The position numbers and the translations under genes are program-made. From an uncultured delta proteobacterium (lineage in GTDB: Bacteria > Desulfobacterota > Syntrophia > Syntrophales > UBA2185), in NCBI GenBank assembly GCA_963729715.1, contig CAVSPA010000005.1:640001-704000 (forward strand): 64,000 nucleotides of DNA, given 5' to 3'. Under the pieces are notes generated by a model, which did no database searches, had not been told where the DNA came from, and saw nothing but the letters and a program-made list of their open reading frames with translations. Positions 20,480 through 47,330 of this stretch are shown piece by piece (the first letter of the stretch is position 1; each line of letters starts with the position of its first letter).

Positions 20480-20628
20480 GCGAAGGCCGTCGAGTGTCTT
20501 TTCGAGGTACATGTGTAGAACTAATCAAGCGAGTCATTTTGGAGGAGATTAGCCAAGCAAGAAATGACAGAAGAAAACTGCGACACGTTATCGATGCAGG
20601 ATGATAACAAGGTAGTGGAGGTAGTTAT

Positions 20629-21831
20629 ATGGCGGGCGCTGAGCTGATTGGAAAAGAAGAGATAAAAGAAATTATGGATGTCATGGAAACAGGCATCCTC
20701 ATGAGATACGGTTTTGACAAAGACAGAAAGGGCATCTTTAAGGTACGCGAATTTGAGGAAGACTTCGCGCGCTACTGCCAGGCAAAATACGCCTTGGGTG
20801 TTACGTCCGGCTCCACAGCGCTCAAAGTGGCCCTTGTGACTATGGATGTAGGACCGGGGGATGAAGTCATCGTGCCGGCCTTCACATTCATCGCCACGTA
20901 TGAAGCGGTATTGGAAGTTGGCGCAATTCCCATCATGGCTGACATCGATGAGACTTTGAATATGGATCCCGACGATATAGAAAAGAGGATAACACCTTAC
21001 TCGAAGGCCATTATTCCCGTGCACATGTGCGGTGCTCCGGCACATATCGACAGGATCATGTCTGTTGCGAGAAAAAATAAACTCCTCGTCCTCGAAGACA
21101 ATGCCCAAGCTTCCGGCGGCAGCTATCGCGGGAAAAAGCTGGGGACGTTCGGTGACATGGGCATCTTCAGTTTTGACTATTATAAGACCCTCACCACGGG
21201 CGAAGGGGGAATGGTACTGACTGATAATAAAGATTTCTATCTCCGTGCCGACGGGTACCACGATCACGGCCACGACCACAACCCCAATGTCAGCAGAGCG
21301 CTTGAAGGGCGGACGATTCTCGGCTTTAATTACCGCATGAACGAACTTCAGGGCGCCCTTGGCCTCGCCCAACTCAGGAAGCTTGATACGATTATTGCCG
21401 AGCAGAAAAAAAATAAAAAAGCGATTAAAGATGTCCTTAGCAAATGCAAAGGCATTAAGTTCAGAGAGATCCCGGATCCCGATGGAGATACGGCAACTTT
21501 TCTGGCGTTCAATATGCCGGACGAGAATGCCAAGGCGCGGTTTCAGAAGGCCCTCTCCGGCGAAGGAGTCGATACCGTCTGCTTCAAGAATAATCTCTGG
21601 CACTACCTTCCCAACTGGGAGCATTTTCTGGCGCGGTCAACAGCGAACTCAAAGAAGTATCCTTTTACAGATCTGTCATACAAAGGAAAGGTTAACTACG
21701 ACAGATCGACCATACCCCAGGCGGAGGATATACTTGGCCGGACTCTTGTAATGAATATATCAGTAAAGATGCCGGCAGAAAGATTTGCGAAGATCAAAGA
21801 AGGGATTGAGAAAGCGGCAAAGAGTCTATAG
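20629..21831 (+). CDS. kdnA: DegT/DnrJ/EryC1/StrS aminotransferase, KdnA-like (8-amino-Kdo synthesis)
   Basis: PLP Lys in SFDYYKTLTTGEGG; segments DHGHDH, LGLAQLRKLDTII, KNKKAIKD, FREIPDPDGD, WHYLPNW resemble Shewanella KdnA as recalled; adjacent to kdsB. Confidence 0.72.
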   Translation: MAGAELIGKEEIKEIMDVMETGILMRYGFDKDRKGIFKVREFEEDFARYCQAKYALGVTSGSTALKVALVTMDVGPGDEVIVPAFTFIATYEAVLEVGAIPIMADIDETLNMDPDDIEKRITPYSKAIIPVHMCGAPAHIDRIMSVARKNKLLVLEDNAQASGGSYRGKKLGTFGDMGIFSFDYYKTLTTGEGGMVLTDNKDFYLRADGYHDHGHDHNPNVSRALEGRTILGFNYRMNELQGALGLAQLRKLDTIIAEQKKNKKAIKDVLSKCKGIKFREIPDPDGDTATFLAFNMPDENAKARFQKALSGEGVDTVCFKNNLWHYLPNWEHFLARSTANSKKYPFTDLSYKGKVNYDRSTIPQAEDILGRTLVMNISVKMPAERFAKIKEGIEKAAKSL

Positions 21832-23573: not shown

Positions 23574-24509
23574 ATGATAGATATTGATTATTTAAAAAAG
23601 ATCAAGCTGGTAACTTCACCCCTGGGCCAGCAGCTCGTCGCGGCGTTATTGCTGTTTCCTAATTACCGTATCTTCGCTAAGGTCGACATTCAGATCGAAA
23701 ATATCGAGCTTATTCCACGCAACGAGAATGTGATCTTTGCCATGAATCACACAGATCGTTTCAATTACTGGCCGTTCCAGTATAAACTCTGGAGCATGAG
23801 ATGTTTTTCATATACCACGGTCTGGGTGAAGGGCAAGTATTACAGGAATGCGCTGCTTGCCAAAGGGCTTGACCTGTGCAATCTCATTCCCGTCCCCTCC
23901 ATGGGTTATTTGATCGAGGAGTTTTACAGAAAGAAATTGAAACAGCGGCTCGATAGGAACGTTTACAGGGCGATTAAGGATATCATTGACGGCAAGTATG
24001 AAAGTATTGAAGCCTACCCGAGGAAGGCAGCGGAGGTACTCAATGCATTAGGGGGACAATTTGTTGATCTTGTGAGAGGCCACTATGATCTCATAATGGA
24101 GCGGGTAGCGGAATTGAGCAGGACGGCCCTCTCTGAAAAAAAACTTAACCTTATCATCTTCCCTGAAGGTACGAGGGGAACCCAGCTCGGAGAAGGAAGA
24201 ACAGGCGTTGCGCAGCTTGCATTATCCACGCGGAAAAAGATCGTTCCAATCGGGTGTAACAATTCGGATGAGTTATATACAGGGAGCCTGCCTTTCGCGA
24301 AAAGCGGACGGATTGTCTATCGCGTGGGGGAACCCCTCTCTCTCGACAATCAATTGCGGGAATTCGCGATTGACGAACCATTCAAACTGTTTTCCAAGGA
24401 ATCGCAAAGGAAGTACAAGAAACAGTTCGAAGAGGTGACGAGAATTGTCATGGAAAACATCAACAAGCTCCTGGATGAGAAGTACAGGCGCGCCTTCACC
24501 GGGTCATGA
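23574..24509 (+). CDS. Lysophospholipid acyltransferase (PlsC-like) family protein
   Basis: IFAMNHTD block I variant and IIFPEGTR block III. Confidence 0.8.
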   Translation: MIDIDYLKKIKLVTSPLGQQLVAALLLFPNYRIFAKVDIQIENIELIPRNENVIFAMNHTDRFNYWPFQYKLWSMRCFSYTTVWVKGKYYRNALLAKGLDLCNLIPVPSMGYLIEEFYRKKLKQRLDRNVYRAIKDIIDGKYESIEAYPRKAAEVLNALGGQFVDLVRGHYDLIMERVAELSRTALSEKKLNLIIFPEGTRGTQLGEGRTGVAQLALSTRKKIVPIGCNNSDELYTGSLPFAKSGRIVYRVGEPLSLDNQLREFAIDEPFKLFSKESQRKYKKQFEEVTRIVMENINKLLDEKYRRAFTGS

Positions 24510-24563
24510 CGTTATAGAAATTTGCTCTCCAATCCATTTCACCAACTCGCAAGGAGGCGGCAT

Positions 24564-24968
24564 ATGAGCGCCATCGCGGTTATTCAAGAACTCATCAAGC
24601 CTTTGTTTCCCGGCCTGATGGGAATGCAGCTCACAGAAGTTACTCCTGAAAGAGTTATTGCGTCGATGGAGGTTCGTCCGGATTTGTGTACCGTCGGTGA
24701 GATACTTCACGGCGGCGCGCTTATGGCCTTTGCAGACACTCTTGGGGGTATCGCCACGTTTATCAACCTTGAAAAGGGCGCACGCACAACAACCATCGAG
24801 TCGAAGACCAACTTCCTCGGCGCCATGCCCGTTGGCACTCGTATCATCGGCGAGTGCACCCCCTTGCATCGCGGCAAGACCACGATGGTCTGGCAGACGC
24901 GCGTGAAGTCCGAAAACGGCAAGCTCTGCGCCGTTGTCATCCAAACGCAGATGGTGCTTCCCGCCTGA
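24564..24968 (+). CDS. PaaI-family hotdog thioesterase
   Basis: LHGGALMAFADTLGG, TTIESKTNF; RBS AAGGAGG before ATG 24564. Confidence 0.9.
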   Translation: MSAIAVIQELIKPLFPGLMGMQLTEVTPERVIASMEVRPDLCTVGEILHGGALMAFADTLGGIATFINLEKGARTTTIESKTNFLGAMPVGTRIIGECTPLHRGKTTMVWQTRVKSENGKLCAVVIQTQMVLPA

Positions 24969-25078
24969 TGTCTTTCCCCCTGTTGCAATCGGTCTGTTGG
25001 TGGCACCTATCATTTATATCCGGTGCGTCAGGTGGAAAGGCGTTCGTTTGAGACAGGTCTCAAATGAATACAGATTTG

Positions 25079-25144
25079 TCAGTTTCTTAAAATGGCGCCA
25101 GTACTTGCGGGGGAAACAAGTCCGGCATACCATGCTAGGCACCC
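25079..25144 (-). pseudogene. Degenerate duplicate of the last 22 codons of ilvD
   Basis: 51/66 nt identical to 25220-25285 (manual count); translates GCLAWYAGLVSPASTGAILRN* vs [21 protein letters not shown]. Confidence 0.85.
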
Positions 25145-25219
25145 GAGACGATAAGATATCCCCCTCCCTAAACGGGAGGGGGCCAAAGTGCATCATCGGT
25201 AGAATTATATTCGGGGCTA

Positions 25220-26881
25220 TCAATCCTTTAAAATGGCGCCTGTGCTTGCGGAGGTCACAAGTCCGGCATACCGGACCAGGTAGCCGCTCTTGACTGCAGG
25301 TGGCCGTGGTTTAAACTTAGCCTGTCTTTTCTTCAATTCGTCCGGACCGACCTTGAGAGAGATTGTCTTTTTCGGGATGTCGATAGCGATAATGTCGCCT
25401 TCCTTGACAAGACCGATGGGACCTCCCTCGGCTGCCTCCGGAGAGATGTGTCCGATGGCCGCCCCGCGAGTTCCGCCGCTGAACCTGCCATCAGTTAGGA
25501 GCGCCACCGTCGTATCGAGCCCCATACCGGCTATAACCGACGTCGGCGCCAGCATCTCGCGCATGCCCGGTCCGCCCTTCGGACCCTCATAGCGGATGAC
25601 GACGATATCGCCCGGTTTGATCTTCCCGCCGAGGATGGCGGCAATGGCATCGTCCTCAGAATCAAAGACCCGGGCCTTGCCTTTGTTGACGAGCATTCTT
25701 TCTGCGACAGCGGACTGCTTGACGACAGCGCCATCGGGGGCCAGATTACCCCTCAGGATAGCGATCCCCCCTTCTTTCGAATAGGGGTTGTTAAGCGGCC
25801 GGATGACGTCGCTGTTTAACACCACAGCCCCTTTCAGAGTGAAGCCCACCGCCTTTCCTGTAACGGTCAAGGCCTTCAGGTCAATGACGCCAAGCCGACT
25901 GATTTGCTTCATCACCGCCTGAACCCCGCCTGCCATGTCCAGGTCTTCCAGATGGTGTTGCCCCGCGGGGCTTAGCTTGCAGAGATTAGGGGTTTTCTTG
26001 CTGATCTCATTGAAAAGGTCGAGGTCTAGTTTAATTCCCGCTTCGTGGGCAATAGCGGGAATATGGAGGACTGTATTGGTCGAGCAGCCCAGGGCCATGT
26101 CCACAGCGATGGCATTCTTGAAGGCTGATAGTGTTGCGATTTTCCGCGGACGGATATCTTTTTTGAGGAGTTCCATGATCTTCATGCCGGCCTGCTTCGC
26201 CAGGCGCCGCCTGGCCGCGTGGACGGCAGGTACCGTGCCATTGCCGGGGAGGCCGAGGCCGAGGGCCTCGGTTACGCAGTTCATGGAATTGGCCGTATAC
26301 ATGCCTGAGCAGGACCCACAGCCGGGGCAGGCGCAGTCTTCCAAGGCCTTCAGATACTTTTCTTTCATCTGGCGGGATTTTACCTTTCCCACGCCTTCGA
26401 AGACACTGATGAGATCAACAGTCTTACCCTCCAGGGTTCCGGCCATCATGGGACCGCCGCTGATGAAGATGGTAGGGATATTCAGTCGAAGCGCCGCCAT
26501 CAACATCCCGGGAATAATCTTGTCACAGTTGGGGATCATGACGAGCGCATCAAAGGGATGGGCGACAGCCATGACCTCGATGGAATCGGCGATCAGCTCA
26601 CGGCTGGCAAGGGAGTATTTCATGCCTGTATGTCCCATGGCAATCCCGTCGCAGATGCCGATGACGGGGAATTCGACGGGCGTTCCGCCTGCCATGCGGA
26701 TGCCTGCCTTTACGTCTCCGGTGATAATATCCAAATGAATATGTCCGGGTATGATTTCATTGGCGGAATTCACCACGCCTATCAAGGGCTGTGCAATTTC
26801 TTTATCCGTATACCCCATGGCTTTGAAAAGAGATCTGTGGGGCGCCCTTTCAAGCCCCTTTTTCATCAGGTCGCTTCGCAT
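25220..26881 (-). CDS. ilvD: Dihydroxy-acid dehydratase
   Basis: [48 protein letters not shown] 26881. Confidence 0.96.
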
Positions 26882-26956
26882 GCTTTCCTCCTTATATTTT
26901 TTTCCAATGAGCGGAATGTAGAGAGCCGTATCGCAATCCTCCCATTTTGTCATTCC

Positions 26957-28003
26957 TTACTTTTTTCTTCGCTCCGGTCTCAATGAGCGAACCACTGCGC
27001 CCGCCAGCCACATTTCGCTATTCTTTATGGCTTCGAGTTCCTTTTGCAGTTTCTCCCTGTAGTCAGGGGCGGAGTTTACCTCGAGGACTATGGCTGTTTC
27101 CTTGCCGGATGCCACTCTGTCGTACAAGTTATCGAATACAGGCGCTACAGCATCACGAAATCTGTTTTTCCAGTCCAAGGCGCCCCTCTGGGCAGTTGTG
27201 CTGCAATTGGCATACATCCAGTCCATACCATTTTGCGCGACAAGCGGCATGAGGCTCTGGGTCAATTCCTCGACTGTTTCATTGAAGGCTTCACTGGGGC
27301 TGTGTCCATGCTTGCGGAGAACATTATACTGCGCCTCCAGGACACCGGCGAGACAACCCATGAGGACGCCGCGCTCACCCGTGAGGTCGCTGTAAACTTC
27401 CTGTTCAAAGGTGGTGGGGAACAGATACCCTGATCCTATGGCAATGCCGACGGCAAGTGTCCTTTCCAGGGCTTTTCCTGTGGCGTTTTGGAAAACGGCG
27501 TAACTCGAATTTATGCCGCTTCCCGCAAGAAAGTTGTCGCGTACCGTGCGTCCGGCACCTTTTGGCGCTACCAGTATAACATCGATGTCAGAGGGAGGGA
27601 TCACACCAGTCTGATCTTTATACACGATGGAGAATCCATGAGAAAAATAGAGGGCCTTTCCTTTTGTCAGTTGGAGTTTTAGTTCCGGCCACATGGCCTT
27701 CTGACCGGCATCTGACATCAGGTACTGGATGATTGTGCCGCGTTTTGCAGCCTCCATTGGTGGAAACAGCGTCTCGCCCGGCTTAAAGCCTTCGTCAATG
27801 GCCTTCTGCCAGTTGAAGTCTCCTTCGCCCACGATACAACGGATTCCGTTGTCCCTCATGTTTAGGGCTTGACCGCGTCCCTGTACACCGTAGCCAATGA
27901 CGGCAACCGTTTCATCCCTGAGCACTTTGCGCGCCTTTTCGAGGGTGAACTCCTCTGATGTGACAACCTCTTCCATGACCCCGCCGATGTTGATTTTAGG
28001 CAT
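26957..28003 (-). CDS. ilvC: Ketol-acid reductoisomerase, Bacteroidota/fungal Ilv5-like type
   Basis: IGYGVQG, FSHGF, VAPKG, SDLTGERGVLMG, EAFNETVEE, MYANCSTTAQRGALDW. Confidence 0.95.
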   Translation of the reverse strand: MPKINIGGVMEEVVTSEEFTLEKARKVLRDETVAVIGYGVQGRGQALNMRDNGIRCIVGEGDFNWQKAIDEGFKPGETLFPPMEAAKRGTIIQYLMSDAGQKAMWPELKLQLTKGKALYFSHGFSIVYKDQTGVIPPSDIDVILVAPKGAGRTVRDNFLAGSGINSSYAVFQNATGKALERTLAVGIAIGSGYLFPTTFEQEVYSDLTGERGVLMGCLAGVLEAQYNVLRKHGHSPSEAFNETVEELTQSLMPLVAQNGMDWMYANCSTTAQRGALDWKNRFRDAVAPVFDNLYDRVASGKETAIVLEVNSAPDYREKLQKELEAIKNSEMWLAGAVVRSLRPERRKK

Positions 28004-28082
28004 ATTAGTTCCTCCTTATTGTTATAAATTTAACGATCAATAGCATTGTGTGGTATGTACTCTGAATACCCCTCATTTACGA

Positions 28083-28580
28083 CTATTTCTGACGCTCCAC
28101 GGCGACAACCCCAGTTCTCGTAAAATCATCCATTCCCATCTTGTCCAAAAAAGCAAGGGCGTCGTCGATGTCCTTTTTACCGCCCGTTACTTCCAGTATG
28201 CAGGTGTCAGCATCCATCTTTACAATCTTCCACTTAAGCGTGTCAACAGTCTGCATGATTTTCACTTGATTCGCATCGGTTAATTTCATTCTCACCAGAA
28301 CCATTTCCCGGCAAGCCGCATTCGCGCGCGTCAGATCCTTCACTTCAAGGACATCAATAATTTTTGTCAGTTGCTTTTCAAGTTTGATGACAGTCTCCCG
28401 ATTACCGAGGGTGGTAATAACGATTCTGGTAAATTCAGGATTTCTCGTGATATTTGCCGAGATGCTTTCGATATTGAACCCCCGGCCACTGAAGGTTCCC
28501 GCGATCCTGGCCAGGACATCGGGTCTGTTATTTACCAGGATGGAAATCGTATTCTCTTTTACTTCCATAAGCTCATTCAC
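28083..28580 (-). CDS. ilvN: AHAS small regulatory subunit (Ile-leader operon)
   Basis: ISILVNNRPDVLARIAGTFSGRGFNIESI, REMVLVR, TRTGVVA. Confidence 0.92.
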   Translation of the reverse strand: MNELMEVKENTISILVNNRPDVLARIAGTFSGRGFNIESISANITRNPEFTRIVITTLGNRETVIKLEKQLTKIIDVLEVKDLTRANAACREMVLVRMKLTDANQVKIMQTVDTLKWKIVKMDADTCILEVTGGKKDIDDALAFLDKMGMDDFTRTGVVAVERQK

Positions 28581-28612
28581 CTCACAATAGATTTGATATA
28601 TTCCAATCCACG

Positions 28613-30301
28613 CTATTTGCGTAAGACCATATCTGAGATCGCCGCACCCGGTGAAACCATGGGGTAGACGCCTTCTTCTGGTTCAACATGGAAATCCATT
28701 ATGACAGTCTTTGGAGTATCGAGACCCTTCCTTAATGTGGCCTCCACCTCTTCGGGGCGTGTCGCCCGCAGGCCGACAGCGCCATAAGCCTCGGCAAGCT
28801 TCACAAAGTCAGGCACATTATTTATGTTGCTGTGGGAATAACGCTTTCCGTAGAAGAGTTCCTGCCATTGGCGAACCATGCCCAAAAATCCGTTGTTAAG
28901 GATGACGATCTTAACGGGAAGGTCATAATTAACAGCCGTTGCGAGTTCCTGTATGTTCATCTGGATACTTCCATCTCCGGCAATATCTACTACGACCTTG
29001 TCGGGACGCGCAACCTGAGCGCCGATGGCAGCCGGGAATCCATAACCCATTGTCCCGAGGCCGCCCGATGTAATAAATGAATTGGGGTAATCGAAATGAT
29101 AGAACTGCGCCGCCCACATCTGGTTCTGCCCCACCTCTGTCGAGATAATAGCTTTTCCTTCCGTGAGACGATAGAGTGTCTCGACAACGTATTGAGGTTT
29201 TATTTTATCAGACTGACAGTATGTCAGGGGGGCAAACTTTTTCCACTGGTCAATCTGATCGAGCCATGCCTTTGTTTGCTTTTCGGGCATTGCAAAACTC
29301 TTATCGGAAATCCACTTATTGAGCAGCTGCAGTACAGGCTTGCAATCGCTTGCTATCGACAGGTGCGTCTTTACAAATTTATCAATGGAAGCCGGGTCAA
29401 TGTCGATGTGAAGTACCTTGGCATGGGGCGCAAAGGCGTCAAGCTTCGATGTAACCCGATCATCAAAACGGACACCAAGCGCGATCAAAAGGTCGCAATT
29501 ACTGATGGCCATATTGGCGTAATATGTGCCATGCATACCCGGCATACCGAGCCAGTGTGGGTCGGATGCGGGGAATGCCCCAAGTCCCATAAGCGTCGAC
29601 GTGATGGGCACATTGAGCATTTTCACAAACGTTCTCAACTCGTCCCAGGCCCGCCCCAGAAGCACGCCACCGCCTGAGATGATGAGAGGCTTTTCGGCCT
29701 TCCTGATCATGTCGAGTGCCTTTACGCATGCGTCGTCGATGGAAGTCTTCTTGTTGTTATTAGGGAGACTTGATGTCCAGGATACAGCAGAATCTTCTAT
29801 AAGGGATCTAGTGATATCCTTGGGAATGTCGATAAGAACAGGACCGGGTCGTCCTGAGCGGGCAATGTCAAAGGCCTCCCTGACGATGCGTCCCAAGTCG
29901 TCAATCCGCCTGACCAGAAAATTATGTTTCGTGCATGGTCTTGTAATACCGGTGATGTCCACTTCCTGAAAGGCGTCACCGCCAATCAAGGAGGTCGCCA
30001 CCTGACCTGTCAGCACGACGACAGGAATGGAATCCATGAACGCATTTGCAATACCGGTTACCGTGTTTGTCGCTCCAGGCCCGGAGGTAACCAAGCATAC
30101 ACCAACCTTTCCGGAAACCCTCGCATATCCGTCGGCTGCGTGTATGGCGCCCTGTTCATGCCGTACTAAAATATTTCTAATCTTTCTTCTATACAGTTCA
30201 TCAAAGATGTCGAGTACGGCTCCACCGGGAAACCCAAAGATCGTATCGACGTTCTCCTTTTGCAAGGCCTCAAAAAGGACTTGTGCTCCTGTTAACTTCA
30301 C
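28613..30301 (-). CDS. ilvB: AHAS large subunit (Ile-leader operon)
   Basis: FGFPGGAVL, RHEQGA, TSGPGATN, RFDDRVT, GDGSIQMN, LGMVRQWQ; GTG start. Confidence 0.95.
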   Translation of the reverse strand: MKLTGAQVLFEALQKENVDTIFGFPGGAVLDIFDELYRRKIRNILVRHEQGAIHAADGYARVSGKVGVCLVTSGPGATNTVTGIANAFMDSIPVVVLTGQVATSLIGGDAFQEVDITGITRPCTKHNFLVRRIDDLGRIVREAFDIARSGRPGPVLIDIPKDITRSLIEDSAVSWTSSLPNNNKKTSIDDACVKALDMIRKAEKPLIISGGGVLLGRAWDELRTFVKMLNVPITSTLMGLGAFPASDPHWLGMPGMHGTYYANMAISNCDLLIALGVRFDDRVTSKLDAFAPHAKVLHIDIDPASIDKFVKTHLSIASDCKPVLQLLNKWISDKSFAMPEKQTKAWLDQIDQWKKFAPLTYCQSDKIKPQYVVETLYRLTEGKAIISTEVGQNQMWAAQFYHFDYPNSFITSGGLGTMGYGFPAAIGAQVARPDKVVVDIAGDGSIQMNIQELATAVNYDLPVKIVILNNGFLGMVRQWQELFYGKRYSHSNINNVPDFVKLAEAYGAVGLRATRPEEVEATLRKGLDTPKTVIMDFHVEPEEGVYPMVSPGAAISDMVLRK

Positions 30302-30390
30302 TTTTCTCTACCCCCTTTCAAAATCCCCTCCGTCAATGCCCTCAACCGATACGGGTTAAGCATGGGTAAAGCATGAAGGGAAATTTCTCC

Positions 30391-30425
30391 AAAAAAAAAC
30401 CGTTACCTTTTGGCTGGTAACGGTC
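30391..30425 (-). terminator. Attenuator terminator of the ilvB-ilvN-ilvC-ilvD leader
   Basis: Minus-strand ACCGTTACC-loop-GGTAACGGT followed by a T8 run. Confidence 0.88.
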
Positions 30426-30459
30426 TTTTGACTGCGAAATATGTGCTAAACGCAAACCA

Positions 30460-30537
30460 TCATCCAGCCCTCCTATGGAAGGGAATGATTATGCCGATAA
30501 TAATTATGATGGTGTTTGCGATACTAAATGCGTGCAT
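30460..30537 (-). CDS. Ile-rich attenuator leader peptide MHAFSIANTIIIIIGIIIPFHRRAG
   Basis: 25 codons, 9 Ile (8 within 9 consecutive codons), GAGGA RBS, directly upstream of antiterminator and terminator. Confidence 0.9.
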   Translation of the reverse strand: MHAFSIANTIIIIIGIIIPFHRRAG

Positions 30538-30564
30538 GTCGTTGTCAATCCTCACTGCGGGACA

Positions 30565-30593
30565 TTTTTAACAGCATCCCATCGTATTGTCAA
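30565..30593 (-). promoter_or_regulatory. Sigma70-type promoter of the Ile leader
   Basis: TTGACA-17 nt-TAAAAA on minus strand. Confidence 0.6.
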
Positions 30594-30612
30594 GAATATT
30601 TTATGATTTCTT

Positions 30613-31125
30613 CTAGATTTTTCTCTGGGGCTTCGTTCTCTCAATAGCAATTGACCCAGTTCTATTTATTTCCTCCACACCGAATGACTGAAAGAATTTC
30701 AGGAATGCCGCCGTTTCATCCGGCTGACCCGTCAACTCCAGGATGAAATAATCCGGTGTCATGGTGACGATTCTGCAGCCAAACAGTTCAATTGCCCGCA
30801 GGATTTCTGCATAGGCTCCCTCTTTGACGGTAACGCCGATCAACATTAACTCTCTCTGAATGTAGGACTGTCCTGAGACATCGGAGACATTGATGATATC
30901 TACCAGCTTGTCCAGTTGCTTTTTTATCTTTTCAGTAAAGTCAGGATCCGATTCGCTGGTCAGAGTGATTCTTGAAACGTCCGGGTTCGTTGTTTCTGCC
31001 ACGCAGAGGCTCTTGATGTTGTATCCATGGCGGCCAAACACGCCTCCCACACGGGACAGCACGCCCGGTTGATTGTTTACGAGAATGGAAATAGTCTGTT
31101 CCTGTTCGCGTGCCTTTCTTAACAT
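30613..31125 (-). CDS. ilvN: AHAS small regulatory subunit (Val-leader operon)
   Basis: ISILVNNQPGVLSRVGGVFGRHGYNIKSL, KQLDKLVDI, RELMLI, RTGSIA. Confidence 0.92.
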   Translation of the reverse strand: MLRKAREQEQTISILVNNQPGVLSRVGGVFGRHGYNIKSLCVAETTNPDVSRITLTSESDPDFTEKIKKQLDKLVDIINVSDVSGQSYIQRELMLIGVTVKEGAYAEILRAIELFGCRIVTMTPDYFILELTGQPDETAAFLKFFQSFGVEEINRTGSIAIERTKPQRKI

Positions 31126-31148
31126 AGTAGATCCTCCGCAGTTATTTC

Positions 31149-32822
31149 TTAGTCAAGTCTGTCGTACATCATCTCGATATTCGAGCATCCCGGCGGGATG
31201 ATGGGGTAGACATAGTTTTCCGGATCAACAACGGCTTCCAGGAGATATGGGCCATCAGCCTTTACCATAGCTTCGATGCCGGCCTTCGGATCTTTATCTA
31301 CGGCAATTCTGCTCCCTGGGATGCCGAAGCCGCGGGCCACCGTCACAAAATCAACCTTGCTTCCCAAATCAATAGTGGTAAAACGGGCATTGTAAAAAAG
31401 ATCCTGAATCTGGCGAATCATCCCCAGATGACCGTTATTGATGACGACAATCTTTATGGGTAAATGGTAGTAGCTAATGGTAGCCAGTTCCTGGATGTTC
31501 ATATAGAATCCTCCATCGCCTGTGATAGCGATGACCGCCCTCTCCGGAGCGCCTACCTTAGCGCCGATCGCCGCAGGCAGGCTGAATCCCATAGTCCCCA
31601 TGCCGCCGCTGGTGATGAGGCTGCGGGGACTGCGCGCCTGCCATGTGCGCACTGTCCATATCTGATTCAGCCCCACATCCGCAGTCACCGTTGTTTCGAC
31701 GGGCATGGCCTCCTGTAGCATGTGGATAAAATCTCCCGCCGATCCGCAGCCCGTGTCCGCGACTTTTCCGGTGATGGCGTCGCGCTCAGACTGGATTCTC
31801 TGGAGCCACTCCGACTTTTCCTTTGCATCTATCAGAGGCAGCAAGGCCGTCAGTGCATCGCGAATATCCCCGACGTAAGGCAGATTAATCTTGATGCTCT
31901 TTCCGATCGAAGTAGGGTCGATATCGATCTGGGCAATCTTTGCCAAAGGCGCGAATTCTTCTATGAGTGCGGTACTGCGATCTGAGAAGCGTGTACCTAT
32001 GGCCAGAATGAAATCACATTGATGCACCATCCGGTTTGCCAGCTCATTACCGTGCGTTCCTATCAACCCCAGGTTGTATCCATTGACGGAGTCAACGGAA
32101 CCGATGCCCATCATCGTAGTGACGAAGGGGATCTTCGCCTTTTCAATCAGATCGCGTATCAGGCGAAATGCATTGCTAAGTTTAACTCCTCCTCCGATGA
32201 TGAGGATAGGCCTTTCGCTCTGATTCAATGTCTTGGCAATCATCTCCAGTTGTTCACGATCTTCTTCAGTTTTGTAGTTCGTTTTCAACGCAGGGGCAGC
32301 TTTCTTTTCTGCCAGAGGGCATTTCGACGACAGAATATCGCGGGGGATATCCACTAAGACCGGACCCGGCCTGCCGGTCTTGGCAAGTTCAAATGCCTGC
32401 CTCAGTGTTGCCGCAAGATTATTCACATCATGCACCTGGTAACTGTGTTTTGTGATAGGCAAGGTTATGCCGATGATGTCTGTTTCCTGGAAGGCATCAT
32501 GTCCGAGAAGGCTTGTGCTCACCTGTGCTGTAAGGGCGACCATGGGCGTTGAGTCCATGAAGGCCGTGGCAATTCCCGTCACCAGGTTGGTCGCCCCCGG
32601 TCCCGATGTTGCGATGCAGACGCCTACTTTTCCGGTGGCACGAGCGTAGCCGTCGGCAGCGTGAGCCGCTGCCTGTTCGTGTCGCATGAGGTAGTGCCGG
32701 ACCTCGCTGTTTATCAACCGGTCATGAAGGGGAAGAGTGTTTGCCCCCGGGTATCCGAAGATTACATCAACTCCTTCCTCCTTTAAGATTTCTATGATTA
32801 TATCTGCGCCAATGGTTTCCAT
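31149..32822 (-). CDS. ilvB: AHAS large subunit, divergent paralog (Val-leader operon)
   Basis: FGYPGANTL, RHEQAA, TSGPGATN, RFSDRST, GDGGFYMN, LGMIRQIQ. Confidence 0.92.
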   Translation of the reverse strand: METIGADIIIEILKEEGVDVIFGYPGANTLPLHDRLINSEVRHYLMRHEQAAAHAADGYARATGKVGVCIATSGPGATNLVTGIATAFMDSTPMVALTAQVSTSLLGHDAFQETDIIGITLPITKHSYQVHDVNNLAATLRQAFELAKTGRPGPVLVDIPRDILSSKCPLAEKKAAPALKTNYKTEEDREQLEMIAKTLNQSERPILIIGGGVKLSNAFRLIRDLIEKAKIPFVTTMMGIGSVDSVNGYNLGLIGTHGNELANRMVHQCDFILAIGTRFSDRSTALIEEFAPLAKIAQIDIDPTSIGKSIKINLPYVGDIRDALTALLPLIDAKEKSEWLQRIQSERDAITGKVADTGCGSAGDFIHMLQEAMPVETTVTADVGLNQIWTVRTWQARSPRSLITSGGMGTMGFSLPAAIGAKVGAPERAVIAITGDGGFYMNIQELATISYYHLPIKIVVINNGHLGMIRQIQDLFYNARFTTIDLGSKVDFVTVARGFGIPGSRIAVDKDPKAGIEAMVKADGPYLLEAVVDPENYVYPIIPPGCSNIEMMYDRLD

Positions 32823-32854
32823 ATTCGCTTCTTGCTCCTTGCTGTTCAGAAAAT

Positions 32855-32886
32855 AAAAAGCCGCCAGTTCATTTGCACAGCGGCTT
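32855..32886 (-). terminator. Second terminator-like hairpin in the Val leader region
   Basis: Minus-strand AAGCCGC-loop-GCGGCTT then TTTATTTT. Confidence 0.6.
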
Positions 32887-32895
32887 GTAAGGCAT

Positions 32896-32928
32896 AAAAA
32901 AGCCGCGGGTTACAGGGGCCCGCGGCTC
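32896..32928 (-). terminator. Attenuator terminator of the Val leader
   Basis: Minus-strand AGCCGCGGG-loop-CCCGCGGCT followed by a T run. Confidence 0.88.
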
Positions 32929-32947
32929 TTTGTTCTATGTCATTCCA

Positions 32948-33037
32948 TCACAGAAACCGAGCAGCGGTCCCCCGAAGTACAGATACTACGACTACGGCTA
33001 CAATAAGGGTACTTGTGCTCAGGATGTAACGAATCAT
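32948..33037 (-). CDS. Val-rich attenuator leader peptide MIRYILSTSTLIVAVVVVSVLRGTAARFL
   Basis: 29 codons; 6 Val in 8 consecutive codons (5 GTA, 1 GTC); GAGGT RBS; upstream of terminator. Confidence 0.88.
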   Translation of the reverse strand: MIRYILSTSTLIVAVVVVSVLRGTAARFL

Positions 33038-33057
33038 CTGCTTACCTCTACTCATTA

Positions 33058-33085
33058 ATCTTATATAAGAAATCAGATTTGTCAA
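33058..33085 (-). promoter_or_regulatory. Sigma70-type promoter of the Val leader
   Basis: TTGACA-16 nt-TAAGAT on minus strand. Confidence 0.6.
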
Positions 33086-33106
33086 GGAATTTTTGGGCTA
33101 CTCTCA

Positions 33107-35149
33107 TTAACGGGAACCGTCTTTATTGAGCCTGTTGGTTTCTTCTTGCGTTTCCTTGATTTCTATAGGTACAGCGCGAGTCCCTGTCGTACCCTCGAGA
33201 AAGCTCTCGAATATGGCATCCTGGGTCGAGCGTGTAGCCGGAATACCTGTGTGAGGTTCTACCTTGATGAAAACAATTCCGTCCGGCACGGGAAAAACTT
33301 CTCTGGGCCTTCCCTGCAGGGCTTTTTCCATAAAATAGAGCCATATTGGAGCTGCCGCCCTGCCTCCCACTTCTTCTCTGCCGAGTGAGGTTTCCTGGTC
33401 AAAACCAACCCATACCCCGGCCACGAGAGACGGTGTAAAACCTATGAACCAGGCATCTCTCGTATCATCTGTCGTTCCCGTCTTGGCTGCCACGGGCCGG
33501 CCGATGCTCTTTACTCGCCTCCCTGTGCCGCTTTCCACTACATCCTGCATGACATAGGAAGTCATAAATGCTATGCGGGGGTCAATTACCTCCTCACTTT
33601 TTACCTGGGTCTCTTCAAAGACATGACCCGTCCGATCGACGATTTTCTTGATGAAAAAAGGAACGACCCTCTTGCCTTGATTTGCTAGGACACCGTATCC
33701 CCTCACCATTTCCAGCAGAGTGACTCCCGATGTTCCCAGGGCCAGAGAGAGGTTCTTTGACAAGGGAGAAGTTATCCCCATGTTCGTGGCATATGCGGCG
33801 GCATAGTCGACCCCGATCTCCTGGAGAATCTTTATCGTAATGATATTTCGTGACTGCACGAGGGCGTTTCTAAGAGTGGTCGGCCCATTGAATTTACCGT
33901 CGAAGTTTCTTGGTTTCCAGAAACCATCAGGAGATGCTCTATCTTCATACACAATGGGAGCGTCCAGTATGCGCGTAGAGGGTGTCATTCCCTTGTCAAA
34001 GGCGGCTGTGTATATAAATGGCTTAAATGCCGATCCGGGCTGCCTCCGTGACTGGGTGGCACGGTTGAATTCACTCTTCTTGAAATCCCTGCCTCCGACC
34101 ATAGCCGTGATAGCACCGGTCTTCGCCTCCATACAGAGAAGAGCCCCCTGAACAAGTCCCTTCTCATACTTCTCCCGGTCTTCCAATTCTTGAAGCCCCT
34201 TTTCTACTGCGTCCCGTGCCGCCTTCTGCATGTCTATGTTAAGGGTAGTATAGACCTCAAGACCTTCCTTGTAGAGCACGTCGCTCCCGTATTTTTCCAA
34301 AATGTATTTCCGTATGTTTTCGACAAAATAAGGGGCGATTTTTTCTTTGGGTCTGATGGACTTGAGGGCTACAGGCACTGCCAGGGCCCGTTCTTTCTCT
34401 GCTGCGGTAATGTATTCGTCTTCGACCATCCTCTCAAGCACGTATGCCTGTCTCTGGCGGGCACGGTCGAAATGAAGGAAAGGAGAATAGCTGCTGGGCG
34501 CTTTGGGAAGACCGGCCAGGAGTGAGGCTTCCGCGAGGTTCAGATGCCTGGCGCTTTTCCCAAAATATCCTTGTGATGCTGCCTCAATGCCGTAAGTGCC
34601 ATGCCCTAAATATATGTGGTTGAGGTATAAGTTCATAATTTCGTCTTTGGAAAGATACTTGTCAATCTTATAGGCTAAGAAGGCCTCCTTGATTTTTCTC
34701 ATGTAGCTTTTTTCCGAAGACAGATAAAGGGATTTTGCTACCTGCTGTGTTATGGTGCTTCCGCCCTGAACTATACGACCGGCTTCGATATTCTTATAAA
34801 AGGCCCTTGTCATGCTCACCAAGTCAAAGCCGGTATGCTGATAAAATCTCGCATCTTCCGCGGCCACAAAGGCCTGAACGACCACCTTTGGAACTTCAGA
34901 CAGCTTAATGATTTTTCTGTCTTCCATGAAAAATTCATCGATTAGTTCGTTATTGTCTGCGTACACCCGCGTGGCGATGCTGGGACGGTAGTCCTTTAAG
35001 GCGGCTATGCTAGGTAATTCTTGCTGAAGGACATAGTACAAGATACTGCTTACTATGATTGCCAGAACGACAAAGCACACTGTGGCTATCAGCAGTACTG
35101 TGCCAAGACGGGAGTGTTTAGGTTGCGTTTTCTTGTATTTGGGTCTCAT
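33107..35149 (-). CDS. mrcA: Class A penicillin-binding protein (PBP1A family)
   Basis: N-terminal TM; EDARF, GGSTITQQ, RKIKE; RQPGSAFKP, SRN, KTGTT. Confidence 0.9.
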   Translation of the reverse strand: MRPKYKKTQPKHSRLGTVLLIATVCFVVLAIIVSSILYYVLQQELPSIAALKDYRPSIATRVYADNNELIDEFFMEDRKIIKLSEVPKVVVQAFVAAEDARFYQHTGFDLVSMTRAFYKNIEAGRIVQGGSTITQQVAKSLYLSSEKSYMRKIKEAFLAYKIDKYLSKDEIMNLYLNHIYLGHGTYGIEAASQGYFGKSARHLNLAEASLLAGLPKAPSSYSPFLHFDRARQRQAYVLERMVEDEYITAAEKERALAVPVALKSIRPKEKIAPYFVENIRKYILEKYGSDVLYKEGLEVYTTLNIDMQKAARDAVEKGLQELEDREKYEKGLVQGALLCMEAKTGAITAMVGGRDFKKSEFNRATQSRRQPGSAFKPFIYTAAFDKGMTPSTRILDAPIVYEDRASPDGFWKPRNFDGKFNGPTTLRNALVQSRNIITIKILQEIGVDYAAAYATNMGITSPLSKNLSLALGTSGVTLLEMVRGYGVLANQGKRVVPFFIKKIVDRTGHVFEETQVKSEEVIDPRIAFMTSYVMQDVVESGTGRRVKSIGRPVAAKTGTTDDTRDAWFIGFTPSLVAGVWVGFDQETSLGREEVGGRAAAPIWLYFMEKALQGRPREVFPVPDGIVFIKVEPHTGIPATRSTQDAIFESFLEGTTGTRAVPIEIKETQEETNRLNKDGSR

Positions 35150-35916
35150 ATTTCCTTTTGATCGTCTTTCAAATCTTCTGCCTTGGGACGTTTCTTCTCA
35201 GCGAGCTTGGCTACGATTATACCAATCTCATAAAGGCCCATCAATGGTACAGCCATGATGATCTGGGTAATCGCATCAGGGGAAGGCGTCAGGATTGCAG
35301 CAGCGATAAATATTATAAGAATAGCGTAACGCCTGTTTCGCGACAGCGTTCTTGAACTTACGACACCGATTTTGGCTAAGAAAAAGATAACAACGGGGAG
35401 TTCAAAGGACACACCAAACGCAAGCAAGAGCTTCAGGGAGAGAGAAAGATACTCTCGCAGTGAAAACATGGGCTTAAGAAAGTCAGATGAAAATTCCACG
35501 AAAAAGCTGAATGCCGGAGGAAGGGCAAGATAATAGCCGAATAGTACGCCGCAAATAAACAGAATGGTGGAAGAGATAACGAAGGGAAGCATGTATTTCT
35601 TCTCTGACCTATAGAGACCAGGTGAGATGAATTTCCACAGTTGATAAAGGATGTAGGGGCTTGTAAGAAAAAGTGACGCGTAGAAGGATATTTTCATGTA
35701 GTTGAAAAACGCCTCGGGCAGGCTGGTATATATCATGAAGCTGTTCGGGGGTAGGACCTGGTATAGAGGCCTTGTAATGATCTGGAATAGCCATTCTTTA
35801 AAATACCAACAGACACCGAAACCGATAGCTGCGGCAATCATTATGCGGATGATTCTGGTCCGCAATTCTTCCAGATGATTAGTGAAGGGCATTTTTTCTT
35901 CTACAGGGTCTTCCAT
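35146..35916 (-). CDS. tatC: Twin-arginine translocase TatC
   Basis: HLEELRTR, YQLWKFISPGLY, FELP, AAILTPSPD. Confidence 0.95.
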   Translation of the reverse strand: MEDPVEEKMPFTNHLEELRTRIIRIMIAAAIGFGVCWYFKEWLFQIITRPLYQVLPPNSFMIYTSLPEAFFNYMKISFYASLFLTSPYILYQLWKFISPGLYRSEKKYMLPFVISSTILFICGVLFGYYLALPPAFSFFVEFSSDFLKPMFSLREYLSLSLKLLLAFGVSFELPVVIFFLAKIGVVSSRTLSRNRRYAILIIFIAAAILTPSPDAITQIIMAVPLMGLYEIGIIVAKLAEKKRPKAEDLKDDQKEI

Positions 35917-35970
35917 AGATTAATTATCAGCGTCTCCTCTTATAAATTGATTCTAACTCGAGTAGTGAAT

Positions 35971-36288
35971 TCAAGATTGAGCTTTAAAAGGGGAATCTTT
36001 GTGGGGGGGTTCTTTTGTTTCATCGCCGCCTGGCGGAGAATGCTTATGGTCATCCTGGTCATTTTTTTTAACATACAGCAGTGAAGCTTTAAAGTCATTG
36101 ACTTCTTTTTTTACATCTTCCGGCTTGAGAGTTTCCTTGATATTTTCCGTTACATCATCGGCCGCTCTGCGAAATTCGGAGAGACCGTTGCCGAAGGATT
36201 TTGCAAGATCTGGCAGCTTCTTCGGACCCACGACGATCAATGCGATAACTGCTATTACGATGAGCTCAGGCAAACCGATGCCGAACAT
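35971..36288 (-). CDS. Twin-arginine translocase TatA/TatB family subunit
   Basis: [26 protein letters not shown]; directly upstream of tatC. Confidence 0.9.
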
Positions 36289-45296: not shown

Positions 45297-47330
45297 GTGA
45301 TTTATCTAAACAACATCTCCTTGTCCTTCGCTGACAACACGATCTTCGATGGCATCACTTGGATGATTCCGGAAAAAAGTAGGATCGGACTCGTAGGGGA
45401 TAATGGCACCGGGAAGACCACATTGTTCAGGGCTATCCTGGGGATGGTAGATATAGATCAGGGCAGCATAGAGATTCCGAATAGAAGGAACAGGACAATC
45501 GGCTACCTGCTCCAGGATCTGGTAGAACTGGAGCCCTTCCCCCTGATTGACTATCTCAGGAAGAAAAGTGGCATAGACGATATCGAACATACTCTGAAAG
45601 ATCATGAGAGGCGCATGTCCCAGTGTGATCCGGACTCGGCCGAGTATCAGGAGATAATGAAGGCATACGAAGTCGCGACTGCCCGCTATCAGGCCGCCGA
45701 AGGATACCGATTCGACGCAAAGGCGAAACAGATACTAAACGGCTTCGGGTTCCGGGAAAAGGATTTCTCTAAGAACTGCACTGAATTTTCCGGTGGCTGG
45801 AAGATGCGCATCCTGATAGCGCTGATCTTACTATCCGCCCCGGATATCATGCTCCTCGACGAGCCGACCAATCACCTCGATACGGAAAGCATGGAGTGGC
45901 TGGAGAGCTATCTGAAAAATTACCACGGTACTCTGCTTGCGATTGCCCACGACCGCGTGTTCCTCGACAAAATGGTCCATCAGATCGTCGAGCTCGCCAA
46001 TCATCGACTCACCGTATACAAGGGAAACTACTCTTACTATCTCGCGGAAAAGGAACGGCGTCTGGAGGCCCTGAAAAAGCAGATGGCCCTTCAGCGTGGA
46101 GAGATCAAGAAGACACAGGAATTCATCGAGCGGTTCCGGTATAAAGCCACCAAGGCCAAGCAGGTCCAGAGCCGCATCAAGATGCTCGAACGGTTTGAAG
46201 TCATTGAAAGTGAAAGAAGCAGGAGGCAGGTTCATATCAGATTTCCCGAAGCGCCGAAAAGCGGCAGGGACGTTGTATCTGCAAGGCGGGTCTCCAAGAA
46301 CTATGGGGACCTCTCAGTTTTCAATCCCTTTGACCTGACAATCTACAGGGGTGAAAAGATCGCTCTTGTTGGTGTCAACGGGGCAGGTAAATCCACCTTG
46401 GCCAGGATTCTCGCCGGTACGGAAGATCCGTCTTCCGGTATGGTTACCTATGGCCTCAACGTGAGCATGGCCTTCTTTTCTCAGGAAAGCGCAGAGAATC
46501 TCGACTATGGGCGTACCATCTGGGACGATGTCTCTCTGACCGGCCGTCGCAGTAATGATCAGGGAAAAAGGAACCTCTTGGGGACTTTTCTCTTCTCCGG
46601 GAATGACATCTATAAGGATATTTCCGTGCTCTCCGGCGGAGAGAAGTCGCGTCTTGCCCTGCTGAAAATTCTTCTCCAGGATTCCAATTTCCTGATCCTC
46701 GACGAACCCACCAATCATCTCGACCTCAAGACGAAAGAGATCCTCCAGAATGCCCTGCTCGGGTACACAGGCACGGTGGTAATAGTTTCCCACGACCGTT
46801 TCTTCCTGGATCGCCTCGTCACCAGGGTGATCGAGATTCGCGATGGGCGATGCTACGAATATCTTGGCAACTACTCCTACTTCATCCAGAAGCGCGGTGA
46901 AATGGCCGCGGCGATCATGGGCACAGACGGCGCCTCAGTAGCCGGTAATCCACCTGCAACGGCTTCACCGCCTGAAGTGAGTGAGACGACGCCCGGCCGG
47001 AGGCCCTTTAAGACGAAGGACGAAAAACGGCTGGAGGCTGAGGAAAGAAACCGGCTTTCGCGAATTATGAGCGACTTTAAAAAGAAACTGAAGGCGCTGG
47101 AGAATCAGATTATCCAGCTCGAAGAGAAGAAGGCGGATAACGAAAAGATTCTTTGTGAGCCTAACATTCACAAGGAACCGCAGAAGATCAAAATGCTGAA
47201 TCAGGAGCTGCATGATATCACCAGGGAACTCGAATATCTGTATGTTTCATGGGACACTGTTACACAAGAAATTGAAGCCCACGAAGCCGAAGGCGGCGTC
47301 ATCATACAGGATAGTTGCTCAGGACTGTAA
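45297..47330 (+). CDS. ABC-F family ATPase (ribosome-associated)
   Basis: Two NBDs (GDNGTGKTT, FSGGW, LLDEPTNHLD; GVNGAGKST, LSGGEK), no TM, C-terminal coiled coil. Confidence 0.93.
   Translation: MIYLNNISLSFADNTIFDGITWMIPEKSRIGLVGDNGTGKTTLFRAILGMVDIDQGSIEIPNRRNRTIGYLLQDLVELEPFPLIDYLRKKSGIDDIEHTLKDHERRMSQCDPDSAEYQEIMKAYEVATARYQAAEGYRFDAKAKQILNGFGFREKDFSKNCTEFSGGWKMRILIALILLSAPDIMLLDEPTNHLDTESMEWLESYLKNYHGTLLAIAHDRVFLDKMVHQIVELANHRLTVYKGNYSYYLAEKERRLEALKKQMALQRGEIKKTQEFIERFRYKATKAKQVQSRIKMLERFEVIESERSRRQVHIRFPEAPKSGRDVVSARRVSKNYGDLSVFNPFDLTIYRGEKIALVGVNGAGKSTLARILAGTEDPSSGMVTYGLNVSMAFFSQESAENLDYGRTIWDDVSLTGRRSNDQGKRNLLGTFLFSGNDIYKDISVLSGGEKSRLALLKILLQDSNFLILDEPTNHLDLKTKEILQNALLGYTGTVVIVSHDRFFLDRLVTRVIEIRDGRCYEYLGNYSYFIQKRGEMAAAIMGTDGASVAGNPPATASPPEVSETTPGRRPFKTKDEKRLEAEERNRLSRIMSDFKKKLKALENQIIQLEEKKADNEKILCEPNIHKEPQKIKMLNQELHDITRELEYLYVSWDTVTQEIEAHEAEGGVIIQDSCSGL

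Follow-up and report, generated by a model that had tools for sequence, protein, structure and literature searches.

The window analyzed here is a 64 kb stretch of contig CAVSPA010000005.1 (assembly GCA_963729715.1) from an uncultured bacterium of the Syntrophales, and it encodes two tandem pairs of acetohydroxyacid synthase (AHAS) large and small subunits, designated ilvB1-ilvN1 and ilvB2-ilvN2. Each pair follows its own leader open reading frame (ORF), terminator, and promoter-like site, confirming the twin-operon arrangement proposed in an original prediction made from the sequence without database searches, although the promoter scan taken alone was weak. The first leader is rich in valine and leucine codons and the second in isoleucine codons, and it is highly probable that they belong to two amino-acid-specific attenuators. 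A full division of labor, in which a Val(/Leu) attenuator and an Ile attenuator each gate the AHAS isozyme suited to the amino acid sensed, is probable at the sequence level, where every test run was passed, the diagnostic residues aligned with characterized sites, and the leaders co-varied with them. The gene identities, leader ORFs, terminators, residue alignments, co-variation across the order, and a further attenuator upstream of the citramalate synthase gene cimA were observed directly, and the kinetic and allosteric claims are made with lower confidence than those on the attenuators.

Leader peptides and attenuators

In both operons, the regulated gene is preceded by a short ORF in which codons for the presumed regulating amino acid form a run, and an intrinsic terminator lies between the leader and the first gene (Table 1). 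Stretches of ten residues containing at least seven Ile or at least six Val occurred only three times in the six frames of the window, and two of these were the leaders. The third (IGVVVVAVIV, ~21288) fell in the coordinate range, with the frame match unestablished, of a minus-strand 367-aa ORF (20521-21624) lacking an NCBIfam match. Leader 1 was Val-rich as predicted but not the Val-only sensor that had been claimed, being a Val plus Leu leader (four Leu and three Ile codons) that is Leu-rich in many relatives. Five of its six Val codons were GTA, a codon that made up 20% of the Val codons in eight neighboring genes.

Folding of the free leader RNAs paired the regulatory-codon region with a downstream segment as a protector hairpin followed by the terminator, with z-scores of -2.2 for leader 1 and -5.26 for leader 2. 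When the fold was constrained by a ribosome stalled at Val codon 17, GGGGACCGCUGCUC, whose codons specify the conserved tail RGTAAR, paired with the terminator 1 5' arm, such that an antiterminator replaced the terminator. This antiterminator was paired in 95.6% of cells across 45 aligned relatives compared to 42-68% when the register was slid, and terminator 1 in 88.4% of cells in the 45 sequences, with four pairs changed on both sides in each of the two helices. In attenuator 2, GGCUGG..GAUGGU can pair with either the Ile-codon region or ACCGUU.CCAGCC, comprising the 5' arm and loop of terminator 2, and the resulting antiterminator was paired in 96.3% of cells in register versus 25-62% when slid. 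The terminator motif was present in 30/30 tandem loci. From these features we infer that the leaders would be translated and would act by attenuation.

Comparison with the Rfam families over positions 24000-36000 (E threshold 10) returned none that reached its gathering threshold. The best match was Thr_leader on leader 2 (25 bits versus a gathering score of 55, E 0.37), two further matches were noise, and leader 1 had no match at this E threshold. The promoter scan showed a weak enrichment (11 sites versus 6.0 +/- 2.7 in shuffles). For P2, the TTGACA and TGTTA elements were kept in 4/4 relatives whose spacers between ilvN1 and ilvB2 were compared. The combined promoter and terminator scan placed both attenuator hairpins on the plus strand only, their stems being palindromic, and the minus-strand T-runs were read directly.

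Specificity site and valine pocket

The predicted large subunit motifs, LGMIRQIQ with Ile472 in IlvB1 and LGMVRQWQ with Trp479 in IlvB2, and their alignment to the W464 site were verified against solved structures and the E. coli genes. Ile472 aligned with the Gln of E. coli AHAS I (6lpi) and the Leu of the plant W574L mutant, and Trp479 aligned with plant W574; the corresponding column in the E. coli genes holds W464 in IlvG, Q480 in IlvB, and W484 in IlvI. IlvB1 was 39% identical to E. coli IlvB, and IlvB2 was closest to IlvI (50%). A homologue search with IlvB1 returned at least 120 matches, and all of those listed were at least 70% identical, i.e., close relatives. The role claimed for the Trp site as determinant of 2-ketobutyrate preference agrees with the portion of the literature source available, in which this Trp is described as the key position for 2-ketobutyrate, AHAS I has Gln in its place, AHAS II loses the preference when its Trp is changed to Leu, and AHAS I at cellular substrate levels would yield almost only acetolactate (PMC5727371).

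The small subunits carry the motifs NQPGVL with Gly21 (IlvN1) and NRPDVL with Asp21 (IlvN2), and the predicted alignment to IlvH G14 was upheld, as both residues fall in the column of IlvH G14, the Gly of E. coli IlvN, and the Glu of IlvM. The acidic residue in this column thus has a natural precedent, the Glu of E. coli IlvM, that the original prediction did not mention. IlvN2 also carries Asn43 in the IlvH A36 column, which we take to be another valine-resistance site. The prediction further stated that a Gly-to-Asp change removes valine feedback, which for the single IlvH G14D change is general background knowledge. Among published alleles the claim stood within multiple mutants, since ilvH G14D+S17F and ilvN G20D/V21D/M22F are given as feedback-resistant in the part of the source available (bioRxiv 10.1101/2020.12.01.406439), and altering the conserved Gly of AHAS III is similarly described as rendering it valine-insensitive (PMC5727371).

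Within the N2 clade, residues N18, P20, D21, V22, L23, A24, R25, N36, A42, and N43 were each conserved in 34/34 sequences, including Asn18 and Asn36, which correspond to IlvH N11 and N29 and are both lost in IlvM. The pocket therefore appears remodeled yet strongly constrained, which leaves room for either a changed effector or a simple loss of valine binding. In wider sampling, Asp in this column was restricted to the closest relatives. Among the best 150 representatives of clusters at 50% identity, 147 of which aligned over the site, Asp occurred in 12, all closest relatives of IlvN2, and the remainder had Gly (151 aligned stretches), Asn (4), or Ser (2). In a sample of 401 genomes from the phylum, the 14 best IlvN2 matches came from the genome itself and 13 of its order and all had Asp, and the next 16 matches, from other orders, had Gly (15) or Ser (1).

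Co-variation across the Syntrophales

A scan of one genome per species returned 78 loci, of which 70 contained an IlvB1 orthologue (63-96% identity) and were labelled Syntrophales, Syntrophaceae, Syntrophus, or similar; the other eight encoded distant Trp-bearing AHAS of other phyla. The survey set consisted of the window plus the 70 Syntrophales loci, with small subunits counted when full-length and two IlvB1 copies ending before the Trp site. All 69 IlvB1 copies covering the site lacked Trp (Ile 38, Met 23, Leu 8), and IlvB2 had Trp in 34/34. In the G14 column, Gly was found in 64/64 IlvN1 and Asp in 34/34 IlvN2. The pairs were in tandem with a long spacer between ilvN1 and ilvB2 in 30 loci and with a spacer of 41-69 nt in four Syntrophus loci including S. 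buswellii DM-2, ilvB1-ilvN1 was followed by ilvC in 22 loci, and 15 loci were cut by contig ends.

Leader composition, expressed as mean Val/Ile/Leu counts in the best 12-residue stretch, was 6.2/0.9/2.0 before ilvB1 in tandem loci (n = 28), 0.9/7.2/0.2 before ilvB2 (n = 29), 4.8/0.4/3.8 in the ilvB1-ilvN1-ilvC loci (n = 21), and 2.0/5.25/2.25 in the Syntrophus loci without an internal attenuator (n = 4), where the single leader serving both pairs is of mixed Ile/Leu/Val composition. The ilvB1 leader was Val- or Val/Leu-rich in 65/71 sources, and the internal leader had at least six Ile in 27/30 tandem loci with the long spacer; in the three exceptions it was masked by N in the record (L012) or weaker, with three (L040) and five Ile (L052). 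Two genomes in which ilvB2-ilvN2 was unlinked and located elsewhere on the chromosome still had Trp, Asp, the Ile leader, and the same terminator. Leader type consequently co-varied with the residues across relatives as anticipated, with Val(/Leu) leaders accompanying Ile/Met/Leu plus Gly and Ile leaders accompanying Trp plus Asp.

Two loci showed further features. In a Syntrophus aciditrophicus metagenome-assembled genome (MAG), no Val leader was found within 300 nt of ilvB1, and the upstream region (L046:3700-4000) contained two or three copies of a ~60-nt repeat (cccgaatg..ttctatcggg..atatggtttt). Another family of the phylum had a tandem ilvB-ilvN duplicate (L186, G021:C1:2307000-2319000) in which both large subunits carry Trp, the small subunits score equally, and the ~50 nt between the pairs lack spacer signals. 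This twin without specialization indicates that tandem duplication alone does not imply specialization.

An isoleucine regulon and a leucine leader

Across the genome, five short ORFs were found that contain a one-residue run and precede a terminator. These were both ilv leaders, one Leu-rich leader, and two unconvincing matches. The Leu-rich leader (..NAILILALLRLL..; ..NAILILALLRLLPNGRRPSFLGSP) and its terminator lie upstream of leuA-leuC-leuD on contig C7 at about 102431-102620 (L132:132-320), with the leuA gene behind it scoring 803.4 bits against a cut-off of 532. As judged from its sequence, it is a third single-amino-acid attenuator.

The genome also encodes citramalate synthase (cimA, 716.4 bits versus a cut-off of 450), which catalyzes the entry step specific to isoleucine, and no match to the ilvA_1Cterm threonine dehydratase model (TIGR01127) was found in it at E 1e-30, such that 2-ketobutyrate most likely derives from citramalate. 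Upstream of cimA on contig C6 at about 45960-46190 (L133:1240-1470) are a TTGACA promoter, an Ile-rich 20-codon ORF (MRSTYTIRPIGIEGIIRLIT), and a terminator similar to terminator 2. The covariance model R1, derived from 24 ilvB2 leaders, scored this cimA leader at 39.5 bits (E 2e-7), the unlinked ilvB2 leaders of the two genomes at 80.9 and 48.1 bits, and the Val and Leu leaders at 18.3 and 19.3 bits, respectively; a model of the Val leader (R2) matched the genome once. R1 matches were present in 55/61 sampled genomes of the order. Of 20 lower-ranked matches picked from 20 genomes, 19 immediately preceded the gene of a CimA orthologue (66-94% identity) and had an Ile-rich mini-ORF, and the remaining one was upstream of an ilvB2. 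The Ile attenuator common to ilvB2 and cimA suggests that isoleucine shortage raises the 2-ketobutyrate supply and the Trp-bearing AHAS together.

In three relatives (L171, L178, and L181), a leuA orthologue (68-76% identical over the compared part) came directly after cimA, which would place both genes under the Ile leader. The neighbor immediately upstream of the unlinked ilvB2-ilvN2 unit with its Ile leader in one relative (L131:4501-5016) resembled a shikimate-kinase-like homoserine kinase, an enzyme of the threonine branch, at 159.7 bits versus a cut-off of 197.

Proposed mechanism and alternative explanations

Operon 1 would comprise P1, leader 1, terminator 1, and ilvB1-ilvN1. Scarcity of charged Val-tRNA, and partly of Leu-tRNA, is predicted to stall the ribosome in the VAVVVVSV run of leader 1, freeing GGGGACCGCUGCUC for the 5' arm of terminator 1 and allowing read-through into ilvB1-ilvN1. 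IlvB1, without the preference-giving Trp, would form mostly acetolactate as the precursor of valine and leucine, and IlvN1, keeping the Gly of valine-sensitive small subunits, would allow the enzyme to be shut off by valine. Operon 2 would comprise P2, leader 2, terminator 2, and ilvB2-ilvN2-ilvC-ilvD and use the same switch with a run of Ile codons. IlvB2 retains Trp and would prefer 2-ketobutyrate, making acetohydroxybutyrate for isoleucine, and IlvN2, with Asp at the Gly site as in resistant mutants and comparable to the Glu of IlvM, would ignore valine. Isoleucine shortage would raise citramalate synthase, and with it the 2-ketobutyrate supply, together with IlvB2-IlvN2. The substrate preference and valine sensitivity or insensitivity of both pairs are predicted from single residues.

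Several observations weigh against this division of labor. Kinetic constants are not fixed by single residues, Gly-to-Asp resistance appears in the available papers only within double or triple mutants, and the strict conservation of the N2 pocket (N18, N36, A42, and N43 in 34/34) fits a retuned as well as a dead pocket. At the level of regulation, leader 1 has 3 Ile and 4 Leu codons besides its Val codons and is Leu-rich in relatives, and separate control of the two pairs is not universal, since the Syntrophus pairs stand under one common leader. Any transcript that starts at P1 and continues past ilvN1 meets attenuator 2 directly. The genes ilvC and ilvD, needed for valine too, follow the Ile attenuator and lack their own promoter-like site, so they would not be raised by a shortage of valine alone, and the two channels are not symmetrical. 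Antiterminator 2 is nearly invariant, with one pair changed on both sides, and is barely supported by covariation, and the minimum free energy fold of attenuator 2 retains the terminator even with a stalled ribosome, which would require a kinetic switch of the classical kind. Finally, three of five relatives with an ilvB1-ilvN1-ilvC locus showed no IlvB2 or IlvN2 anywhere in their MAGs (completeness not given), implying that IlvB1-IlvN1 can probably feed isoleucine synthesis too and that pair 1 is biased rather than restricted.

That apparent sufficiency of IlvB1-IlvN1 in three relatives also speaks for an alternative in which the two pairs are differently regulated but catalytically and allosterically equivalent, and the residue changes mark the lineage but leave function unaltered. 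In addition, both large subunits exceed the cut-off of the biosynthetic AHAS model, and the tandem duplicate in another family of the phylum lacks such differences. Equivalence is nevertheless unlikely, because both residue states are fixed across the order in proteins that have diverged to 45-65% identity, the changes fall at exactly the two positions where mutagenesis alters specificity and feedback in the available part of PMC5727371, the residues co-vary with leader type, and E. coli acquired this pairing independently. A different reading of the N2 pocket holds that IlvN2 is retuned rather than blind, its Asp21/Asn43 pocket binding another effector such as isoleucine or leucine. The ten residues conserved in 34/34 sequences each would not be needed by a disabled site, and the small IlvM also lacks N11 and N29; the pocket residues, though, also contribute to the ACT dimer interface, through which the catalytic subunit is activated, and they could be conserved without binding a ligand. 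We give retuning a small probability. In its boldest form, of similarly low likelihood, the Syntrophales would have three ribosome-read channels (Val(/Leu), Ile, and Leu) and an independently evolved AHAS pair whose IlvN2 pocket is retuned to an effector such as isoleucine. If true, the transcription, catalysis, and allostery of pair 2 would all be isoleucine-specific, a feedback specificity not described so far for AHAS.

It is very improbable that pair 1 is a catabolic acetolactate synthase or other carboligase. IlvB1 lacks Trp, as catabolic enzymes do, and its TIGR00118 score is under that of pair 2 (660.9 versus 812.1 bits), but it is above the biosynthetic cut-off and far under the AlsS cut-off (312.7 versus 551.1 bits), and it has a regular small subunit, a Val/Leu leader upstream, and ilvC directly downstream of the pair in 22 relatives. 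Hardly credible is the suggestion that the short ORFs arose by chance or encode small hydrophobic peptides and that the hairpins are ordinary terminators of the upstream genes. It draws on the lack of an Rfam family at threshold and on translation and attenuation being read from sequence, but such stretches occur only three times in 64 kb, conservation across the order extends to the ORFs, to their composition, and to the alternative helices, the second hairpin comes after a conserved promoter rather than a gene end, and the same element precedes cimA. The division of labor between a Val(/Leu)-gated and an Ile-gated isozyme consequently remains the preferred reading.

Gene content of the locus

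All features listed in Table 1 are on the minus strand, from 33085 down to 25220 of the window. Gene identities were assigned by NCBIfam profile scores against curated cut-offs. IlvB1 and IlvB2 both scored above the biosynthetic AHAS cut-off (TIGR00118) and far under that of AlsS, and both small subunits covered positions 2-157 of the 158 of the TIGR00119 model and aligned to 2f1f and 2pc6 over their full length, including the ACT and C-terminal domains. The promoter scan listed no promoter-like site between ilvN2 and ilvC. No further AHAS pair was found in the genome. A third thiamine-diphosphate enzyme related to AHAS (C16:25890-27479) scored 334.9 bits, below the cut-off, and no small subunit was found beside the gene.

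Table 1. Positions of the twin AHAS operon features in the 64 kb window.
Feature	Position	Strand	Description
P1 promoter-like site	33085..33058	minus	TTGACA-16-TAAGAT; 10/12 matches
Leader 1 ORF	33037..32948	minus	29 codons, MIRYILSTSTLIVAVVVVSVLRGTAARFL; 6 Val, 4 Leu, 3 Ile
Region 2, attenuator 1	32959..32972	minus	GGGGACCGCTGCTC; partner is the 5' arm of terminator 1, giving the antiterminator
Terminator 1	32927..32896	minus	G+C-rich hairpin + 6 T
ilvB1	32822..31149	minus	557 aa; TIGR00118 660.9 bits (cut-off 538.35); Ile472 at Trp464 site
ilvN1	31125..30613	minus	170 aa; TIGR00119 164.9 bits (cut-off 56.9); Gly21 at IlvH G14 column
P2 promoter-like site	30593..30564	minus	TTGACA-18-AAAAAT (TTGACA ... 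TGTTAAAAT); begins 20 nt past ilvN1 stop
Leader 2 ORF	30537..30460	minus	25 codons, MHAFSIANTIIIIIGIIIPFHRRAG; 9 Ile, no Val, no Leu
Region 2, attenuator 2	30456..30469	minus	GGCTGGATGATGGT; partner is the Ile-codon region (protector helix) or the terminator 2 5' arm + loop (antiterminator)
Terminator 2	30425..30391	minus	G+C-rich 14-bp hairpin + 9 T; core of covariance model R1
ilvB2	30301..28613	minus	562 aa; TIGR00118 812.1 bits (cut-off 538.35); Trp479
ilvN2	28580..28083	minus	165 aa; TIGR00119 126.6 bits (cut-off 56.9); Asp21 + Asn43
ilvC	28003..26957	minus	ketol-acid reductoisomerase; 79 nt 3' of ilvN2
ilvD	26953..25220	minus	dihydroxy-acid dehydratase; final gene of second operon

The genes upstream on the same strand (33107-36288, minus) were ordinary and encoded a PBP1A-family penicillin-binding protein, TatC, and a TatB/TatA-type protein. 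The next long ORFs below ilvD included those at 23574..24509 and 24522..24968 on the plus strand and 24504..25013 on the minus strand, of which 23574-24509 and 24504-25013 had no NCBIfam match.

Comparison with known systems

AHAS serves two parallel pathways, and preventing valine from starving cells of isoleucine is a classic problem that was worked out essentially in the enterobacteria. An unrelated anaerobe has apparently evolved the same solution again, in cleaner form, with a low-specificity, valine-sensitive isozyme predicted under a Val/Leu leader, an isozyme with Trp and the acidic residue under an Ile-only leader, and the Ile sensor common to cimA. Being natural and replicated across the order, the Syntrophales loci would back the functions that mutagenesis has attributed to W464 and G14. 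They would also supply ready-made AHAS variants with feedback resistance and substrate bias for strains producing valine or isoleucine, and a compact system for asking how specific leader-peptide attenuators are among three similar amino acids.

In E. coli, ivbL contains Val and Leu but no Ile and is partnered with IlvB (Gln) and IlvN (Gly), and ilvL is mixed Ile/Val/Leu and partnered with IlvG (Trp) and IlvM (Glu). The prediction that enteric leaders sense mixed amino acids thus held for ilvL and failed for the Val/Leu-only ivbL. E. coli ilvBN is under cAMP-CRP control. Pair 1 resembles ivbL-ilvBN in its Val/Leu leader, non-Trp large subunit, and Gly-bearing small subunit, and AHAS I is described in the available text as lacking 2-ketobutyrate preference and being fully inhibited by valine (PMC5727371). 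It differs in having Ile, Met, or Leu at the Trp site of IlvB1 instead of the Gln of IlvB and a full-length two-domain IlvN1 (170 aa) compared to the 96-aa E. coli IlvN.

A large subunit tree of 27 rows, comprising 12 of the 69 IlvB1, eight of the 34 IlvB2, four outgroups, and three E. coli proteins after one incomplete row was dropped, placed IlvB1 in a separate clade (100/100) and E. coli IlvB as sister to IlvG (99/97), with the root and long branches as caveats. These two placements ruled out IlvB1 as an orthologue of enterobacterial IlvB. The tree indicates that the Syntrophales isozyme pairing had an origin independent of the enterobacteria and is apparently convergent.

Pair 2 shares with AHAS II the GMVRQWQ motif, identical to that of IlvG around W464, an acidic residue in the G14 column (Asp in IlvN2 and Glu in IlvM), and an operon that, like ilvGMEDA, includes downstream pathway genes. 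According to the portion available, AHAS II is valine-insensitive and has the highest 2-ketobutyrate preference (PMC5727371). The systems differ in that leader 2 is Ile only compared to the mixed ilvL, and in that IlvM is an 87-aa single ACT domain without N11 and N29 whereas the 165-aa IlvN2 aligns with IlvH end to end and keeps both. IlvN2 scored 35.8 bits on the IlvM model NF008362 against a cut-off of 68 and thus is not of the short IlvM type. The Syntrophales operons also differ from those of E. coli in standing in tandem.

The Asp of IlvN2 is in the same column as the Gly-to-Asp changes of feedback-resistant mutants (IlvH G14D, IlvN G20D/V21D/M22F, and the C. glutamicum M13 allele). Those are laboratory and mostly multiple alleles, whereas the Asp of IlvN2 is natural, fixed clade-wide, and found alongside Asn in the A36 column. 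In Corynebacterium and other Actinobacteria, ilvBNC has a leader peptide with branched-chain codons and alternative hairpins before ilvB, but a single AHAS stands there under a single leader that senses all three amino acids together, and the available portions of these sources describe neither a split by amino acid nor paired isozymes (PMC11857589, PMC10272879, PMC1262725).

The twin arrangement of the Syntrophales was likewise not found described in the literature searched, which left out most subscription journals. The original prediction, which named no earlier description of the paired layout, agrees with this as far as the Syntrophales are concerned, but it overstated the novelty, as the three-part logic of sensor, catalytic residue, and allosteric residue is already present in E. 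coli AHAS I and II. The principle is known from E. coli, and the Syntrophales arrangement differs in the leaders nearly pure in one amino acid, the tandem operons, the full-length IlvN2, the aliphatic residue at the Trp site, the Ile sensor common to cimA, and the separate origin.

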